From a virus: DNA of 10,263 nt. Position numbers and translations under genes: made by a program. Each line of letters begins with the position of its first letter. Position 1 is the stretch's first letter. A model generated the notes under the pieces. The model did not search any database and was not told the origin of the DNA. It worked only from the letters and a program-made list of their open reading frames with translations. Below, one piece after another: positions 1,931 through 9,377 of the stretch. Location of the stretch: the UHGV virus genome UHGV-0135135; one strand, 5' to 3'.

Positions 1931-2907
1931 TGGTTGGGTACTCCTAATATCATTCGTGTTGTATAGCCGATCCGGTCCTCAAAATGGGCTACGTTTTTCA
2001 CCAGCAGCTTACGAGGCAACGATTCGTCCAGCTTATTTTCCTGGTCGTAACGATACACGAGGATCTCAATAACCATTCCCGGCGTGATGTCGGGATTACC
2101 TGCGACCTCAATATCCATTTTGGGTTCGAGCGACAATTGCATATTGCGCAGAGTTTCCATATCCGGATCGGATATATGGCGTATTGGGAGTGAGCTATCG
2201 CCATATTCGACATAGCCTTCAGTCATTGAATAGCCGGTAAATCGATACTGAGTATTTGCCGTAACGGCATACTCTTGCTGTATAAGCCTCATTTTTGAAA
2301 TCGTGTATTCCGCCCTGGGGTTGTTCCCTTCATAGGTGAATGATGGTTTAGCTTTCATAAGATCAGCTAATGTATAAAAGTTAAACTGACCACGGCAGGT
2401 CCAGCATAAAGCGCCTTTGTCGCGGGCCATTTCAGATAGCATTTTGGAGGGTTTTTCCCCAGCGGAAAGATGGTACGTACAGCTTCGTTTCAATGCGCTG
2501 GAGGAAACTTTCAGTGTACCGGTATACGTCTTGAAAATGGTATCAGACGTTTTGTTTGTATGCAGGTTAGCCCGTAGAGCGGGGATCTTAAATATCCGAA
2601 CGTCTTCACTGACTGCAATGACCGTAATGACATCACCAGCCAGCACCGCAGATGTTACGAAAAAAGTTGTTTTAAACGTGCCTGCATTGCCTTGTGGATC
2701 ACCCATCTCTGCAACCAGTGCTGCGCCGTATTTTGTTTTCCAGTCATCAATTATGGTGCCGGTAATATCGTGAATTTCCAGTTTCAGCAATGGTGCACGC
2801 AGGTTTGCCTTTTCCACATATACGGCAGTGAATATCCACCCCCTGGGCACTTTGTTTCCGTTGATGGTAACGGACTGTAGAAAGTATTGCTGTAGCTCCT
2901 GGGACAT
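1927..2907 (-). CDS. Hypothetical protein (326 aa), third gene of the coupled four-gene operon
   Basis: Long ORF with ATG at 2905-2907 and GGAG 6 nt upstream. Stop overlaps the downstream GTG start; start lies 4 nt after the upstream stop. No family recognised. Confidence 0.6.
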   Translation of the reverse strand: MSQELQQYFLQSVTINGNKVPRGWIFTAVYVEKANLRAPLLKLEIHDITGTIIDDWKTKYGAALVAEMGDPQGNAGTFKTTFFVTSAVLAGDVITVIAVSEDVRIFKIPALRANLHTNKTSDTIFKTYTGTLKVSSSALKRSCTYHLSAGEKPSKMLSEMARDKGALCWTCRGQFNFYTLADLMKAKPSFTYEGNNPRAEYTISKMRLIQQEYAVTANTQYRFTGYSMTEGYVEYGDSSLPIRHISDPDMETLRNMQLSLEPKMDIEVAGNPDITPGMVIEILVYRYDQENKLDESLPRKLLVKNVAHFEDRIGYTTRMILGVPNQ

Positions 2908-2910
2908 GGC

Positions 2911-3678
2911 TTACTCCATTCTCAGAGAGGTTTCAGTAATAATTCGTTTCGCGTCCAGCTCCCAGGCGGTGATCACGTCTGCTATAACACTAATTGCCGT
3001 TTGTGCAGCATAAATACGCTCTTCCCCAATTGGGGCTGAAACATCAGTAAAACTGATGTCTTTAGCATCCTGAATCGCGCAAATTAGCGGGACGGGGACT
3101 CGTACCAGCGGGGTTGTTGCTTCAAACTGCGTTCCTGCCATCAAGCGAAGGCGTGCTCCAAGCGAATTACACATCAGACTCATGGTCGCCTTATCCGTCG
3201 CCATTAACGTAACGTCATACGTCATATTTGCCTGGGTGTATTCCAGGGCTACTAAAGGCATACCGCTGCCAGGTTCGCAGAAGTGATCACAGCTTTTGCG
3301 GTCTATCTGCTGGTCATTGTTGATATAGCTGATATCCATTGAGCGCGAGATATTAATCAGAGGGAGTGCATCGCGATTAATGTTCGGATTCTCTGGCTTT
3401 CTCCCTTGCCCGGCATTCGCACGGCGAACCGCTTTAAGGAACTCGACCGCATTATCAAAACGGGCAACATAAACACGCTCTGCTGGTGAGCGATTCAGGA
3501 ATGATGCAAAGCGCTTTTCTTCTTTTGCAGGTTCCACCAGCGTTACGTCAGAAAAAATGTCGCTGATTAGCGTAGCAAAAGCGTTATCCACTCTTTCCAG
3601 ACCAGTTGTCTGGAATTTTCCAGTACGCGTTGTCTGCCACTCGCCAATGCGGGACAGTAGAGTTTTGTTAGGTGTCAT
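2911..3678 (-). CDS. Hypothetical protein (255 aa), second gene of the coupled four-gene operon
   Basis: ATG at 3676-3678 overlaps the upstream stop (ATGA), with GGAG 7 nt upstream. No family recognised. Confidence 0.6.
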   Translation of the reverse strand: MTPNKTLLSRIGEWQTTRTGKFQTTGLERVDNAFATLISDIFSDVTLVEPAKEEKRFASFLNRSPAERVYVARFDNAVEFLKAVRRANAGQGRKPENPNINRDALPLINISRSMDISYINNDQQIDRKSCDHFCEPGSGMPLVALEYTQANMTYDVTLMATDKATMSLMCNSLGARLRLMAGTQFEATTPLVRVPVPLICAIQDAKDISFTDVSAPIGEERIYAAQTAISVIADVITAWELDAKRIITETSLRME

Positions 3679-4547
3679 TCGATCACTCCGTTTTGAGTGG
3701 TATCAAAGTTCCTGGCCGGGATGCAGTAATAAAGGGAACCAACGTGTTGTGTTCCGTAGCTGAAGATTCGATGCACGTACCACCAGCGGCGGGCGAGGCC
3801 ATTCGCCATTTCTTCGTTCCATTCCAGGATTGAACCAACAGGTACGTTGTTTGCAGCAATACGCAGGATTAGCACTTCATCAGCAAGACCATCCTGTTCT
3901 CCATCGGCATCAATGGCATGAAACGAATCCCTTCCGTCCGGGTTATCCAGGACGTATACGATTTCCGGTTCCAGATAGGCAAGCTCACGCTGGTTGTTGT
4001 CCAGTAGCGTGAAAGACTCTTCACCTGTTTCATCGTTTACGACGCCATAGGAGCCATCAGCCGGGCGATATAAAAGCGCCTCGAATGCGTCAGGGCTTGA
4101 TTCAATAATGAGCATCCAATCGGCGCGGATCTGGTCGTTGAACGCTTTGTGTCCGTTATATCGGGTTTTAAGCTGCTGGTTTGGTTGTCTGTTAGCGAGC
4201 GATGCCGGTAGGGGGGCGATGTCAGGTTCAATCACTTCCGTAACAGAGTCACCAGCATTATCAGGCCAATTATCATGGCGGCTATCTGCTTCGGTGGCAG
4301 CGTGTTCTTCCAGAATACTGAATGGCCCTGTACTGACCTTCCCATTTTCCGTTGTGCTTCCTTCATTCGCTTCAACCGTCGTTGTCTCTTCTCTCTGCGT
4401 GCTGTCATGTTCTGTTCCCTTTCTCATCAGGCTTGCATCATCAGCAAACCATTCATCAAAACGGCCCATAAGCGTCCTCAAAGGTCGATTTATCAGGTAT
4501 CGAGGGGCATTGTCAGGAGATTGTGATTTCAATTCATATCCCAGCAT
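3675..4547 (-). CDS. Hypothetical, strongly acidic protein (290 aa as drawn), first gene of the four-gene operon
   Basis: Long ORF rich in Asp/Glu. The ATG at 4545-4547 has no Shine-Dalgarno and overlaps an operator-like half-site; an internal ATG at 4467-4469 has a good GAGGA 5 nt upstream and may be the true start (264 aa). No family recognised. Confidence 0.55.
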   Translation of the reverse strand: MLGYELKSQSPDNAPRYLINRPLRTLMGRFDEWFADDASLMRKGTEHDSTQREETTTVEANEGSTTENGKVSTGPFSILEEHAATEADSRHDNWPDNAGDSVTEVIEPDIAPLPASLANRQPNQQLKTRYNGHKAFNDQIRADWMLIIESSPDAFEALLYRPADGSYGVVNDETGEESFTLLDNNQRELAYLEPEIVYVLDNPDGRDSFHAIDADGEQDGLADEVLILRIAANNVPVGSILEWNEEMANGLARRWWYVHRIFSYGTQHVGSLYYCIPARNFDTTQNGVIE

Positions 4548-5313: not shown

Positions 5314-6510
5314 TCAAGAACCTTTCTTCACGTACTCCATAAACATTTTTTCAGCTTGCCCAGGTGACGTTCCTGCCATGACCAGCGCATCAATGAACGC
5401 CTGCTTCTTCAGTGCGAACTGATCGGCAAGGCGTTGCTGAAGCTCCTTGTTTTTCTGTTTCTCACGTTGCAAGGCCGCTTCTTTTGCTGCCGCTCGTTTT
5501 TTCTGTGCGTCTGACAACTTTCTGGCCCTGGTCAGTTGGTCACGTAGCTTGTCGATCTTGCCGTTGTCCTTTGCCAGTTTTGAGCTTAAAGCGGCCTGGC
5601 GTTTCTGATAGAGCTTCCATTCACGTTTAGCTGCCTCAACATTCGTTTTGCTGCTACGGTTTCGATTGAACGCCTTCTCGTCTTCTTTTGTGAAGTGTTT
5701 TGTCGAGCGGCGGCGATCGTCACCAAAGGCAACTTGCGTTGCAGCTTTTTGCAGGGCGCGAGCAATACTCATCTGCCAACTGGCAGACTGTAGTCGTGTC
5801 ATTGAGTGGATCACATGTTTACAGGCGACGCCTTGCAGCTTAGGGTTGCGAACTTTTGGATAGGCGTATTCTTTTGGCGGGGCCAGGGCAAAGTTACCTG
5901 CAGTGGCGATGTAGCGATACCAGTATTGATGGCGACCGCAGTCACAGTCGAAAGACACTCGCCCGGCACACAGTGATTTTGTGACTTTCAGGGCTGATTT
6001 ATCGTCTTCTGCGATGTCATCGATCATCTGATCCCATTCTTCAAAACGTACCCGGACAATGTGGTGCTGGTGAACGGATATATCGGACGCTTCCACGCGG
6101 ATATTAATCACATTGTGACGAAGAGATACGGGCGTAGCTCTTTTGATACCAGAACCGTCGTCTACGGCGTTATTTGCTCGCTTAATATCGATAGCCTGGC
6201 TGGACGCTACCAGTTGTGCGTATGTAATGCCAGCCGTCTTGCTGTCGTATTTTTCGCGTGCTTTGCTTCGCAGCTTTTCGAAGCCTTTCAGATCGTCACG
6301 CGTAAAGAACGTGCCGCCTTTCTTTTTCCCCAGCTTAAGAATGTCGTCGGCTGATTTATTCCTAAGCCTGCCCGGCGTGAGTGTCCTGTGCGCCTGGCGG
6401 CGTTTGCGGTTTTGCTCTTTCCTGATGAGTTCAAATACGCGTGTGAAATCCTTAGAGGACAGGCCGTCAGTGATATATCGCCCGTCCTGATTTTTCAGGA
6501 AGTCAGGCAT
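5314..6510 (-). CDS. Hypothetical protein (398 aa) with a SWIM-like Cys/His cluster and a basic coiled-coil C-terminus
   Basis: Long ORF whose start overlaps the upstream 109-aa gene by 8 nt. Central FDCDCGRHQ...GVACKHVIHS resembles a CxC...CxH SWIM-type zinc finger. The C-terminal ~90 aa are K/R/A/Q/E-rich with heptad-like periodicity (AAAKEAALQREKQKNKELQQRLADQ). No family recognised. Confidence 0.6.
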   Translation of the reverse strand: MPDFLKNQDGRYITDGLSSKDFTRVFELIRKEQNRKRRQAHRTLTPGRLRNKSADDILKLGKKKGGTFFTRDDLKGFEKLRSKAREKYDSKTAGITYAQLVASSQAIDIKRANNAVDDGSGIKRATPVSLRHNVINIRVEASDISVHQHHIVRVRFEEWDQMIDDIAEDDKSALKVTKSLCAGRVSFDCDCGRHQYWYRYIATAGNFALAPPKEYAYPKVRNPKLQGVACKHVIHSMTRLQSASWQMSIARALQKAATQVAFGDDRRRSTKHFTKEDEKAFNRNRSSKTNVEAAKREWKLYQKRQAALSSKLAKDNGKIDKLRDQLTRARKLSDAQKKRAAAKEAALQREKQKNKELQQRLADQFALKKQAFIDALVMAGTSPGQAEKMFMEYVKKGS

Positions 6511-6832
6511 TTTCTATCTCCGGTGCCGAGCCAGCGTAATCGCGGATCTTGTTTCTTAGCCATGCTGCGTCAGGAAGAGTTAACGTTGTCCCTACCGGCA
6601 TTTCTTCCATTTCTGACTCATGGCCCACCAGCACACGAAATACCCAGCGCAAATCAGCGTTGCCATAGGCGCGATAGGCCGCCAGGTCTGAGCGATAAAC
6701 CTCATCAATTTTTATCGTGTACTGGAAATTATCGGAGTGATACTCCGATACCCGCTTGATCATCTCCTGATGGAATAGTGCGCGCAGCACATCGTCTTCA
6801 ATGCATCGATCGTCGAGCCTGCTGTAACTCAT
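6503..6832 (-). CDS. Hypothetical protein (109 aa), translationally coupled to the 398-aa gene
   Basis: ATG at 6830-6832 with GAGGAA 6 nt upstream; 3' end overlaps the start of the 398-aa gene. Segment DEVYRSDLAAYRAYGNADLRWVFRVLVGHESEMEEMPVGTTLTLPD loosely resembles LysM / phage tail-protein-X-like patterning; this is weak. Confidence 0.55.
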   Translation of the reverse strand: MSYSRLDDRCIEDDVLRALFHQEMIKRVSEYHSDNFQYTIKIDEVYRSDLAAYRAYGNADLRWVFRVLVGHESEMEEMPVGTTLTLPDAAWLRNKIRDYAGSAPEIENA

Positions 6833-6924: not shown

Positions 6925-7206
6925 TTATGCGTGGAAAAATAATGGACGGATGTTTGGGCGAGTGGTTTGCGAAGCAACCCAAAGCTCATACTGGGATTGC
7001 ATACCGGTCCACATTTCGGCACTGGTTCCAAGAGCGGACTCCAGACGAAGTGCCATATCAGCAGAAATACCTGCTTTTTCGTTCAGAATTCGGGAAAGCG
7101 CCGTGCGAGTAATGCCTAATGCAGCAGCGGCGTCTGTGACTGACATGTCTCCCAAATATTCACGAAGAACCGCGCCAGGATGCGCGGGATTATGCATACG
7201 ACTCAT
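6925..7206 (-). CDS. higA: HigA-family antitoxin (COG3093-like HTH)
   Basis: Start taken at the ATG giving [18 protein letters not shown]..., with GAGGA 5 nt upstream (ORF track extends to a TTG at 7218). The MHNPAHPG N-terminus and HTH region ([38 protein letters not shown]) match my recollection of HigA antidote proteins. Confidence 0.8.
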
Positions 7207-7214
7207 AGTGTTCC

Positions 7215-7496
7215 TCAATGATAATCCTGATAGTCAACTAGAATTGCGTCTTCTCCTTCAAATCGGAAGGTAAGTCGCCAGTTACCGTTTACCGATATTG
7301 CCCAGTGACCTTTAAGGTCCGCCCCCTTTAGTGGGTGCAATTCCCATCCAGGCGCAGACATATCGTCCGGGCGTTTAGCTGTATTAAGAGCAGTCAATTG
7401 AATGCGTAGCTTAACCGCATGTTTGGCCTGAATGCCTGCGGTTGAACCTGTCTTGAAAAAGCGTTCAAGCCCTTTATGGCGAAATGACTTAATCAA
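7215..7496 (-). CDS. higB: HigB-family toxin (RelE/ParE superfamily)
   Basis: 93-aa product (L)[13 protein letters not shown]...[21 protein letters not shown] closely parallels the classical HigB toxin as I recall it. Probable TTG start at 7494-7496; the ORF-track extension to 7559 also begins with TTG and is probably leader. Toxin upstream of antitoxin, as is usual for hig loci. Confidence 0.8.
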
Positions 7497-7521
7497 AATA
7501 ATTCCATCTGTGCGCGTAACC

Positions 7522-7533
7522 TGTGTATACACA
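7522..7533. promoter_or_regulatory. 12-bp perfect palindrome TGTGTATACACA in the leader of the second higB/higA
   Basis: Read directly from the sequence, about 25 nt upstream of the proposed higB start on the minus strand. Plausible HigA operator; function not verifiable here. Confidence 0.35.
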
Positions 7534-7693
7534 CTACACACAGAGAGAGCAAAATGCAAGCACTATCCGTATAGACAGAGTTTCTTCGCCGCCCTGAATT
7601 TATTGACTGTCAACAAGTGACTTTCATTAATCTTTATGCGGGGGCCAGCTTCATTTGCTGGCATTAGATTAAAAATTAAACGGAGTGAATGAC

Positions 7694-7828
7694 ATGGATG
7701 TTATCTTCGAATTATTAATGCTAATTGATCTGTTTATGAACGCTTCATTGACCACTCAAATACTCGCGTTAGTATTTTTGTTACTCTTCTATCTGGTATT
7801 AAGGGAGTTAACAAAGCTACTGAGTTGA
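7694..7828 (+). CDS. Candidate small hydrophobic protein (44 aa), absent from the ORF track
   Basis: Hand-translated ATG...TGA encoding MDVIFELLMLIDLFMNASLTTQILALVFLLLFYLVLRELTKLLS. GGAG sits 8 nt upstream of the ATG, and a candidate promoter (TTGACT at 7603-7608, 17-bp spacer, ATTAAT at 7626-7631) lies upstream. Contains one predicted transmembrane helix; its stop abuts the stop of the convergent 217-aa gene. May be a chance ORF in AT-rich DNA. Confidence 0.3.
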   Translation: MDVIFELLMLIDLFMNASLTTQILALVFLLLFYLVLRELTKLLS

Positions 7829-8482
7829 TTAAAGTATCACCGTATCTTCATCAATTACTTGCCCGGCCAGCGATTTTGGTTGGGTATTTCCTGCTTTAGC
7901 TTTTTGATCGCTGATAATGGACAGGAACGAGGCCATTATCCCTGCTTTGTTTTCTTTCTCTACCGAACCAGTCATTTGTTTCAGGTAATCCGCGCTGGCA
8001 ACATTGTGGTATACCGTTGCATAGCAGCACAGAATCATCAGGATGTGCTCTGGTCGGATATCTTGCCAGTTAACTCGATAAACCTCTTCACCGTTGCCGT
8101 TGTATTCGGTATCGACGATAGAGTCGGGGATCTCGAATGCCCCTTTGTTCTTGTCAGGCAGGGATAGCAGCCTTTGTAGTTTCAGCTCTCGGTATCTCTC
8201 CATGCCGACAATGATCGCCGCTCTGCCGTCGGCGTGCCGTGTTTTTAATGTTACCTGGCTGGCACCTGTACCGGCTGAAATAGTTGGCGTGATTTCGTCA
8301 ACCAGCACCTTAAATTCACTTTTACGCAGCTCGGCAATTGCTGGTGGAATTTTTCGTTTTTGTTCAATAGCAGATGCTGGGAGGGGCTTTACTTTGTCAA
8401 TTACAAGCGCACCGTCTTTCAGGACTGCCGTAGCCATCAGCGGCTTGTTAGTCGAAAGGCTGAATATTGCGATCTTTTGCAT
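7829..8482 (-). CDS. Hypothetical protein (217 aa)
   Basis: ATG at 8480-8482 with GGAG 8 nt upstream; single long ORF; no family recognised. Confidence 0.6.
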   Translation of the reverse strand: MQKIAIFSLSTNKPLMATAVLKDGALVIDKVKPLPASAIEQKRKIPPAIAELRKSEFKVLVDEITPTISAGTGASQVTLKTRHADGRAAIIVGMERYRELKLQRLLSLPDKNKGAFEIPDSIVDTEYNGNGEEVYRVNWQDIRPEHILMILCCYATVYHNVASADYLKQMTGSVEKENKAGIMASFLSIISDQKAKAGNTQPKSLAGQVIDEDTVIL

Positions 8483-8508
8483 GGCTTTTACTCCACGATA
8501 GCAGGCAC

Positions 8509-8533
8509 AAAAAAAGGCCGCACATGGCGGCCT
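8509..8533 (-). terminator. Rho-independent terminator in minus orientation, immediately upstream of the 217-aa gene
   Basis: On the minus strand: 7-bp GC-rich stem AGGCCGC / GCGGCCT with a 5-nt loop followed by seven T residues (plus-strand A-run 8509-8515, stem 8515-8533). It ends about 27 nt before the gene's start codon. Confidence 0.55.
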
Positions 8534-8747
8534 GCTTTGGCGTTATGACTCCCTACCGCGCATCGGCTGAAAGTTAGTCGTCAAAAGAACCTTCAACGGG
8601 AGCCGTTTGCGCAATGGATTTTGTCCAGATTGTGATTTCCAGAATAGTGTCAACAATTTTTTTGAATTTTTTATTCGCGCTGAATTTGGCCTAAGTCATT
8701 TTGGCGGAGATGTTTTCTTTTGTAACATAAAACTTCAGTTTGTTTAC

Positions 8748-9377
8748 ATGAAGGATGGTTTTGTGAAGTTAAGGGTTTTGGGAGCAGTGCTCGCGGTTAT
8801 ATTGGGGGGAGTTTCTCTTAATGCTGCCTATGCAGGCGCGTTACCTGCAAAGTATGAGGCTGGACTGAAGGTGTTGCGAAACGCCAAAACAAACTATACG
8901 CCTGATGAAGTTTCAAACTATTGCCAGAAAGAAAATATCCCACTGAAACCTGTAGAGCCATTCTTTAAAAGCAACATTGAGTTCTGTGTATTGGCATATG
9001 CAGCAGATGAAACAGGCAAAGCCATACAAAAGACAGGGTATTCCACCAAAGACACAATGTCGGTGTTAAGTAACGGCGTGTTGCAGTTTGAGCTTTATCG
9101 TCAGCAAGGAATGGGAGATCTATTGCAGCCTTTGTATGTGCTGGCTTGGGTGCCTGAAGGGCAGCAGTTTCTTATCCGGAAAGGGATGCTTCGGCAAAGT
9201 GATGTGGCAGGATTCAATAACATGATGGAACTTGAACGATCCGCGAAGCAAAAACAAGCACCTAAGCAACCTACAGCGGAATGCATTCGTAGTGAGATCC
9301 AAAAGATATTAAGTGAGCAGCCTTACATTGATCGTGGGGTAGCCGAAGTCGCTGCAAAAATGGAATGTACTAATTAA
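8748..9377 (+). CDS. Hypothetical secreted or periplasmic protein with N-terminal signal peptide
   Basis: The ORF-track start at 8607 is almost certainly a non-coding AT-rich extension. Likely start is the ATG at 8748 or the GTG at 8763 (AAGGA 7 nt upstream), giving MKLRVLGAVLAVILGGVSLNAAYA followed by an AXA-type cleavage site. Mature part has 4 Cys. No family recognised. Confidence 0.6.
   Translation: MKDGFVKLRVLGAVLAVILGGVSLNAAYAGALPAKYEAGLKVLRNAKTNYTPDEVSNYCQKENIPLKPVEPFFKSNIEFCVLAYAADETGKAIQKTGYSTKDTMSVLSNGVLQFELYRQQGMGDLLQPLYVLAWVPEGQQFLIRKGMLRQSDVAGFNNMMELERSAKQKQAPKQPTAECIRSEIQKILSEQPYIDRGVAEVAAKMECTN

Follow-up and report, generated by a model that had tools for sequence, protein, structure and literature searches.

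The late promoters of phage P1 are activated by the phage protein Lpa (gp10) and reportedly need the host protein SspA too; in the curated P1 record, LPmat has a '-22 region' AAGTGACTT, followed after 4 nt by the -10 element CAGAAT, and LPdar is laid out alike. Cases in which a resident promoter answers the late activator of another phage are likewise established: the promoters Psid and PLL of the satellite P4 are activated by Ogr of its helper P2, and in an engineered lactococcal 'triggered suicide' cassette a late promoter of phage phi31 drives a lethal gene. Phage D6, for its part, carries orf77 (ASR76398.1), a gene of 44 codons for which the record gives neither function nor promoter. The present analysis concerns the counterpart of orf77 in a stretch of 10,263 nt of viral DNA (UHGV-0135135, referred to as a whole as the window), which comes from a D6-like phage-plasmid of the P1 family in Escherichia. 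This small open reading frame (ORF) lies between the baseplate gene 26 and mat, and a late promoter of the P1 type precedes it, in an element whose own late operons use a different, D6-type box. The reading favoured here, to which we assign a probability of roughly 0.45, is that the locus may constitute a silent, self-contained unit from which the late activator of a P1-type phage would switch on a membrane-active peptide directed against that competitor.

With D6 orf77 the window ORF shares its 44 codons, a stop adjoining the mat stop and 93% nucleotide identity, whereas the D6 copy lacks the insertion of the toxin-antitoxin module higBA found at the site in the window. With the P1 late promoters LPmat, LPdar and LP23, the promoter of the ORF has in common the box AAGTGACTT, the 4-nt spacer, a -10 element of the form TAnnnT, the preceding (A/G)AC and the lack of a -35 element; unlike them, it sits in a D6-type genome and drives one tiny gene instead of a morphogenetic or lysis operon. 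The P4 promoters and the phi31 cassette resemble the proposed unit in that a resident promoter answers another phage's late activator, but their trans-activation has been demonstrated, whereas that of the ORF is inferred from sequence, and their outputs are satellite morphogenesis genes and a restriction enzyme, respectively, as against a 44-aa peptide. Type I toxins (Hok/Gef, Ldr, TisB, Ibs, ShoB, Fst) are comparable in being shorter than 60 aa, with one dominant hydrophobic helix and a structured mRNA; they differ in being expressed from constitutive or SOS promoters, where the ORF promoter would be activator-dependent, they show no homology to the peptide, and the ORF has no dedicated antisense RNA gene.

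The evidence that carries the argument is the promoter. Positions 7610-7633 of the window read GTCAAC-AAGTGACTT-TCAT-TAATCT, an exact P1-type match that is near-identical to P1 LP23 and consists of AC (7613-7614), the -22 box (7615-7623, a 9-bp inverted repeat), the spacer TCAT and the -10 element TAATCT (7628-7633); there is no -35 element, and transcription would start at about 7640. A scan of P1 recovered nine late promoters of the form (A/G)AC-AAGTGACTT-N4-TAnnnT, located 5' of mat, prt, lyz, lydA, R, pmgC/sit, 23, 26 and pacA, and position weight matrices (PWMs) were built from the P1 and the D6 promoter sets. On the P1-type PWM the ORF promoter scores 24.5 bits (P1 set, 23.9-28.4), and it is the sole P1-type outlier both in the D6 genome (23.4 bits, next match 13.7) and in pEC361_3 (24.5 bits, next match 14.0), the complete plasmid closest to the window at 98% identity. 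The number of exact P1-type matches expected by chance in the window is 0.005, motif expectations having been computed analytically. Conservation points in the same direction: between the ORF clades the 21-nt promoter is identical at 20-21 of 21 positions where the 5' untranslated regions (5'UTRs) are 52% identical, the sole interclade change falls on an unconstrained -10 position (the -10 being TAAACT or TAACCT in clades B and C), and homology between loci with and without higBA begins at ACAAGTGACTTTCAT, exactly at the late-promoter element. Taken together, these observations indicate that the P1-type late promoter is probably the functional promoter of the ORF.

An initial annotation of the locus, made from the letters of the window, had given the ORF a promoter of its own in the form of a plausible -35/-10 pair; the idea of a dedicated promoter survives, although in another kind of element (7615-7633), and the pair does not, as a sigma-70 scan found no -35/-10 pair 5' of the ORF on the plus strand. 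The only TTGACT (7603-7608) stands 19 nt from the -10-like TAATCT and forms part of the higBA-side junction. A candidate promoter TTGACT(7603)-N17-ATTAAT was rejected, in that it has no A at position 2 of its -10 and its -35 is missing in loci without higBA. A role of the late-promoter box in serving higB or gene 26 was likewise rejected, because its reading on the minus strand has no -10.

Late promoters of the D6 lineage follow a different pattern. The motif derived here, AAATCACA-N7-[T/C/G]AnnnT, has a box and a spacing distinct from those of P1; the D6 genome contains eight exact sites where 0.18 would be expected, and these precede the late operons of the peptidoglycan hydrolase, prt, ddrB, R, pmgB, 23, 7 and mat, with a ninth site, at lydA, that carries one mismatch. 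In pEC361_3, 11 matches reach at least 18.5 bits on the D6-type PWM, most of them 5' of late operons. The two PWMs are mutually exclusive, every cross-score being negative, and the ORF promoter in particular scores -3.0 when aligned to the D6-type PWM and less at neighbouring offsets, as against 20.5-29.6 for the D6 set. Each of the two genomes, D6 and pEC361_3, encodes one Lpa; the two proteins are 82% identical to each other, and their identity to P1 Lpa is 31% (D6) and 34% (pEC361_3). Because the late operons and the Lpa of the element are of the D6 type, the best-fitting activator of the ORF promoter would be a P1-type Lpa. Even if the ORF should prove to be an ordinary late gene, the comparison defines a late-promoter motif of the D6 lineage that is distinct from that of P1.

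That the ORF is a genuine protein-coding gene appears, from its pattern of sequence change, almost certain. The open-reading-frame listing gives a plus-strand frame at 7685..7828 with a GTG start and 47 aa, within which the ATG at 7694 yields the 44-aa peptide MDVIFELLMLIDLFMNASLTTQILALVFLLLFYLVLRELTKLLS, ending in TGA at 7826-7828. This frame, the GGAG at 7682-7685 that lies 8 nt from its ATG, the abutment of its stop on the reverse-strand stop (7829-7831) of the convergent 217-aa gene, here recognised as mat, and the AT-rich surroundings had all been described in the initial annotation and were confirmed (GC is 0.33 in the ORF and 0.37 for 7560-7828, as against 0.47 for the whole window). 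Among the ORF-bearing loci gathered from viral contigs, plasmids and genomes (n = 38, with 19 distinct nucleotide versions), the frame is conserved, 44 codons being kept in 38 of 38; the frame is free of stops in all 19 haplotypes, and each other frame is stopped in most or all. Variable sites in clade A are distributed over the codon positions as 6/4/21 (binomial p = 9e-5), and the ratio of nonsynonymous to synonymous polymorphism (pN/pS) within clades is 0.12-0.24, compared with 0.03-0.18 for mat. Clades B (MNIFNKLIDLLNKFISASLTQQVSTSVF...) and C (E. fergusonii) differ from the window in about half of the nucleotides of codons 1-28 and the 5'UTR, and nevertheless share ATG, frame and length with it, along with the amphipathic-then-hydrophobic pattern and the stop adjoining mat; most clade A loci have GGAG as their Shine-Dalgarno sequence, and clades B and C have GGA. 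In the protein database the intact 44-aa version is found on about 246 contigs, and frameshifted, extended or junction versions on about 10. One locus, from Salmonella sp. pSa1423-90k (L038, NZ_MK356557.1), was left out of the analyses; it has many single-base indels across both the small ORF and mat, the latter being unannotated, which suggest errors of long-read sequencing left uncorrected more than they do biological decay.

The family to which the gene belongs is narrow and well delimited. In addition to its identity with D6 orf77, recorded as WP_032323274.1 in some RefSeq entries, the peptide matches phrog_38362 (E = 9.6e-28, residues 1-43), and to this full-length match is added an identical position, convergent with mat and between it and gene 26. 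Among 1.84 billion representatives, a profile HMM recovered nothing but the gene's own family (29 + 8 close homologues); tblastn searches of phages and, with filtering switched off, of the P1 genome gave no homologue beyond D6-like elements; and a contig scan with an 18-mer of the ORF added one further D6-like plasmid and one chance match. The range of the family is thus limited to D6-like phage-plasmids found in Escherichia, Salmonella and Shigella, and some relatives lack it. PGAP leaves the ORF uncalled in most RefSeq records; the gene has been known before as a hypothetical protein, and what is new here is its regulation and the suggested model. Whichever reading applies, the analysis validates a small protein gene that is passed over in most standard annotation. 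In clade B (e.g., L040, 1280-1473; P0032-P0036) an in-frame ATG within the 5' stem-loop gives a predicted 63-aa version; because this extension is not conserved, stop codons occupying the region in clade A, the 44-aa form is taken as the conserved product.

On the protein level, the peptide is predicted to have an amphipathic helix on its N-terminal side and, on its C-terminal side, a hydrophobic helix that spans the membrane. AlphaFold2, run with the family alignment, places helices at residues 3-16 and 19-43 with a predicted local distance difference test (pLDDT) score of 95; the first helix is amphipathic (hydrophobic moment 0.34-0.65), and the best 19-residue Kyte-Doolittle mean, 2.30 in the window peptide and between 1.66 and 2.30 across all clades, falls on residues 18-36 and is followed by the tail RELTKLLS, with an overall hydropathy average (GRAVY) of 0.94-1.57. 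The single membrane helix and charged tail of the initial annotation are therefore upheld as far as the hydrophobic helix and the tail are concerned, and are supplemented by the amphipathic helix of the AlphaFold2 model. Assignment to a type I toxin or holin-like family, to which the initial annotation had also pointed, was not borne out: three peptide variants gave no match in Pfam, NCBIfam or PADLOC at E <= 1 apart from a sub-threshold EPV_E5, no holin family was matched in Pfam or NCBIfam, a Foldseek comparison of the AlphaFold2 model with BFVD gave no match with E < 1, and the gene lies far from the lysis cassette. The general features of such proteins are nonetheless present, namely at least one hydrophobic helix (about residues 18-36) with a charged C-terminal tail, as in holins, and, as in type I toxins, a small hydrophobic peptide of 44 aa with a predicted membrane-spanning helix, and a toxin-like or holin-like mode of action is our best functional guess. 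A holin-style dual start (GTG7685/ATG7694) was considered and rejected, being present in the window and unconserved in clades B and C.

The predicted transcript is compact and structured. A unit of about 250 nt would run from the promoter to the 3' hairpin and overlap the 3' end of mat; as the initial annotation had foreseen, the two convergent transcripts are predicted to overlap because their stops abut, and a plus-strand-specific stem-loop inside mat reinforces this prediction. The region 7640-7900 folds with a minimum free energy (MFE) of -67.2 kcal/mol (z = -2.25). Near the 5' end of the transcript, a stem-loop recurs in clades B and C in the form ACCAGCTC-N6-GAGCTGGT, with another loop and a longer stem; it may act as an mRNA stabiliser or control element. 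Codons 29-44, in the part of the ORF predicted to form a long hairpin, are near-identical in nucleotides across clades even where mat has diverged by 22-26%. The 3' stem-loop, which lies within mat at 32-58 nt from its end, pairs over 11 bp, four of them G.U, and forms a stable fold only as plus-strand RNA (-15.3 kcal/mol, compared with -6.4 kcal/mol for the other strand); three independent transitions in relatives keep its pairing on the plus strand only (about 1/8 by chance), and it is degraded or altered in both loci without the ORF. These features are suggestive of a terminator and of the 3' end of a small transcript.

The mechanism that we propose combines these elements. Because a promoter without a -35 element needs an Lpa-type activator, the gene should be silent in the lysogen, and because it would be off there, the element could harbour a harmful peptide with no antitoxin to counter it. 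Once a P1-type phage begins its late transcription in a cell that carries the plasmid-prophage, the Lpa of that phage would fire the ORF promoter; the peptide would then insert in the inner membrane and, acting much as a holin or a small toxin does, compromise it, which would harm the competitor. Taken on their own, heterotypic triggering and an anti-competitor role are put forward tentatively, and we regard them as rather doubtful. The neighbouring higBA and simB-like genes and the accessory status of the ORF would fit a role in competition or defence; PADLOC returned no defence-system match for the peptide, and two features, the rival-lineage type of the promoter and the predicted membrane peptide, are what points to abortive infection or phage-triggered suicide.

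A mirror case is found in P1 itself. When the P1 genome is scored with the D6-type PWM, a single outlier of 20.1 bits emerges (next match 12.8), about 40 nt upstream of lydC, which encodes a holin by homology of 93 aa and for which the curated P1 record lists no promoter. This D6-type box is kept in 40 P1-like loci (L048-L087), even where the leader downstream of it has diverged; it also overlaps the predicted -35 of P1cin on the opposite strand, an overlap that could explain its conservation. Like the ORF, lydC is a small membrane-protein gene without a native-type promoter, placed behind the genome's only late promoter of the rival type; unlike the ORF, to which it has no sequence similarity, it encodes a LydA paralogue and lies beside the lysis cassette. 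The view of P1 lydC as a recent import of a D6-type lydA was rejected, the two being only 33% identical. Reciprocal singletons of this kind are what a model of mutual booby traps predicts, although mosaic module exchange could give them too. According to that model, P1-type and D6-type phage-plasmids would each carry a resident membrane-damaging protein that the rival's Lpa triggers, aborting the infection; in this general form we consider it improbable. If it were true, it would represent a natural, transcriptionally triggered suicide defence that dispenses with sensor protein and antitoxin alike. Should the ORF promoter indeed respond to the late activator of the rival, the locus would be a minimal device for defence or competition, in which a decoy late promoter is coupled to a membrane peptide of 44 residues. 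The retention of the gene without an antitoxin would then be explained, P1 lydC would gain a function, and the late-promoter specificity classes of P1-family phage-plasmids would be shown to be exploited in phage-phage conflict.

The distribution of the ORF among related elements identifies it as an accessory, 'moron-like' gene of D6-like P1-family phage-plasmids, with its own promoter at 7615-7633, a terminator-like hairpin at 7860-7886, a low GC content and a presence/absence pattern; in contrast to classic morons, its promoter is activator-dependent. In one locus (L007) mat is 95% identical and another toxin-antitoxin module stands in place of the ORF region; in a second (L031) mat is 74% identical, the ORF is missing, and the promoter of genes 26/25 directly follows mat. 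In a third (L029, ~2790-4120) an insertion sequence (IS) of the IS3 family, with ORFs of 121 and 263 aa, stands right after ATGGAT (codon 2) of the ORF; here an intact P1-type late promoter is cut off from the rest of the gene, which amounts to a natural knock-out. The gap between gene 26 and mat is a cargo hot spot (window 6925-7612; L007, L015, L024, L031, L035-L037, L040), which holds higBA in the window, a RelE/ParE-type module and higA in L007, the small ORF alone in D6, neither higBA nor the ORF in L031, and further toxin-antitoxin modules in other loci. Within it, higBA is variable cargo between gene 26 and the late promoter, and the conserved block starts at about 7612, directly 5' of the box. 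At the higBA-side junction, adjoining the late-promoter box, lies the palindrome TTGACTGTCAA (7603-7613), which is possibly a HigA operator.

Several other explanations have to be weighed against the favoured one. The chief rival is that the ORF could be an ordinary late gene of the resident phage, its box being recognised also by the D6-type Lpa or by another resident factor, in which case the peptide would be a lysis-timing or holin-accessory protein, a membrane-anchored assembly factor or an agent of late superinfection exclusion. Its position among the late morphogenetic genes mat, 26 and 25, its late-promoter architecture, the homology of both Lpa proteins together with the shared core of their boxes, and the purifying selection on the protein are all consistent with such a gene, yet it is difficult to reconcile with a score of -3.0 bits on the D6-type PWM that no offset improves, with the D6 box and other spacing used by all other late operons of two complete genomes, and with the 24.5 bits attained on the other lineage's consensus, which would not be expected of a weak native promoter. 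Dispensability, as seen in the two loci without the gene (L007, L031) and in the IS-interrupted copy (L029), and a location that adjoins neither lydA/lydB nor the endolysin also count against it, and we consider a resident late gene, in whichever of these roles, unlikely. At the other extreme, the initial annotation had allowed for a chance ORF in AT-rich DNA; base composition, the omission of the gene by PGAP in most records, occasional frameshifted or IS-disrupted copies and relatives without the ORF would suit a chance or decaying, functionless frame, but the opening of this frame alone in 19 of 19 haplotypes, the third-position bias (p = 9e-5), the pN/pS of 0.12-0.24 and the preservation of length and frame over about 50% nucleotide divergence make it scarcely credible.

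Two further alternatives turn on RNA. In a type I toxin-antitoxin system serving post-segregational killing, the peptide would be the toxin, and the antitoxin would be either the mat mRNA, through 3' overlap or read-through, or an antisense RNA. A small hydrophobic peptide, an mRNA structured by a 5' stem-loop and an internal hairpin, necessarily overlapping convergent transcription and residence in a toxin-antitoxin hot spot of a plasmid-prophage are what one would look for in such a system; however, there is no sigma-70 promoter for a toxin mRNA, and the peptide matches none of the models of Hok/Gef, Ldr, TisB, Ibs, ShoB or Fst. The search for an antisense RNA, which the initial annotation had put forward, was also negative: Rfam (E <= 1, 7300-8700) gave only two chance-level matches and no antitoxin RNA, no antisense promoter is conserved between clades, the only promoter-like match on the minus strand (7740-7711, 9/12) sitting in sequence that has diverged in clades B and C, and the overlapping mat mRNA is left as the only candidate. 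By homology with P1, mat would moreover be a lytic-cycle gene and as such a poor source of a constitutive antitoxin. We hold this system to be very unlikely. Much the same low probability attaches to the view that RNA is the main product, the late promoter driving an antisense transcript into the 3' end of mat and thereby modulating mat, with the ORF secondary. The abutting stops, the plus-strand-specific 3' hairpin within mat and the almost invariant nucleotides of codons 29-44, with their predicted hairpin, lend it some colour, but selection is clear at the protein level, including in the diverged 5' half, the start codon and GGA/GGAG are kept in the diverged clades, and, should the hairpin terminate transcription, the predicted transcript would overlap no more than about 60 nt of the coding sequence of mat.

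The proposal of a unit triggered by a P1-type activator must itself be set against a number of opposing observations. As judged by comparison of loci, the ORF is itself mosaic, with an internal recombination breakpoint: codons 1-28 and the 5'UTR fall into two types of allele that have diverged deeply, codons 29-44 hardly vary, and L001 and L040, whose mat genes are 98.9% identical, have ORFs that are only 70% identical, with the breakpoint near codon 28 (window ~7775). Mosaic recombination between phages of the P1 and D6 types could have left the P1-type promoter behind as a relic, and in P1-type phages no homologue that would point to a donor was found. Cross-recognition of the ORF promoter by the resident D6-type Lpa is conceivable: AA.T.AC is common to the P1 and D6 boxes, and certain P1 boxes, AAATGACTA among them, are only two positions off the D6 box. 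In the subclade L002-L006 the Shine-Dalgarno sequence is weakened to AGAG or AGTG. With respect to the peptide, membrane insertion and toxicity are both inferred, toxicity purely so, and in the searches made here the peptide resembled no toxin, holin or defence protein so far known. A length of 44 aa is below that typical of holins, and in the D6 genome orf77, at 71.2 kb, is far from the lysis cassette (lydA/lydB at 30.7-31.5 kb, peptidoglycan hydrolase at 19.3 kb).

Features of the small-ORF locus and its surroundings; positions refer to the window unless an accession is given.
Feature	Position	Strand	Basis or remark
Tail gene 25	5314-6510	-	
Baseplate gene 26	6503-6832	-	
higBA toxin-antitoxin module (higA, higB)	6925..7500 (end ~7500)	-	PHROG matches; RefSeq annotation of pEC361_3
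P1-type (Lpa-dependent) late promoter, putative	7612..7633	+	Matches the curated P1 LPmat/LPdar architecture
5'-proximal stem-loop GCCAGC-TTCATTT-GCTGGC	7644..7662	+	Predicted; MFE and centroid folds
Shine-Dalgarno GGAG	7682..7685	+	8 nt 5' of ATG; from sequence
Small 44-codon ORF	7694..7828	+	Between gene 26 and mat
Long imperfect hairpin in the 3' third of the ORF	7769..7823	+	Predicted; fold of 7640-7900
mat, maturation control protein, 217 aa	7829..8482	-	Convergent neighbour of the small ORF
3' stem-loop and U-rich tail UUUCCUGCUUUAGCUUUUU	7860..7886	+	Within the last mat codons; flagged as terminator-like by the scan
simB-like gene	8607-9377	+	
D6-type late promoter of gene 7	4529-4509	-	Window motif match
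D6-type late promoter of gene 26	6885-6864	-	Window match; two mismatches in the box
D6-type late promoter of mat	8638-8618	-	Window motif match
D6-type late promoter of P1	OP279344 27030-27010; NC_005856 ~31570-31592	- (OP279344)	~40 nt 5' of lydC

A 1.4-kb query around the ORF matched 126 of 5426 complete E. coli genomes, nearly all on plasmids of about 90 kb, and the same locus was matched in Salmonella and Shigella plasmids and, at 83%, in phage D6. The mat protein of the window is 85% identical to that of D6 (orf78) and 33-35% identical to P1 Mat, and it matches phrog_1837. In the leader of mat, between its late promoter (8638-8618) and its start codon (8482), lies a strong hairpin resembling an intrinsic terminator (8515-8533, minus strand; AGGCCGC-CATGT-GCGGCCT followed by TTTTTTT), whose sequence is identical in the D6 mat leader; it hints at control of mat by attenuation or antitermination. 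Elsewhere in the element, by the lpa/pac region of pEC361_3 (63196-63771), a protein of 191 aa is annotated as 'MW1434 family type I TA system toxin'; unrelated to the small ORF, this protein shows that the element carries other toxin-like cargo.

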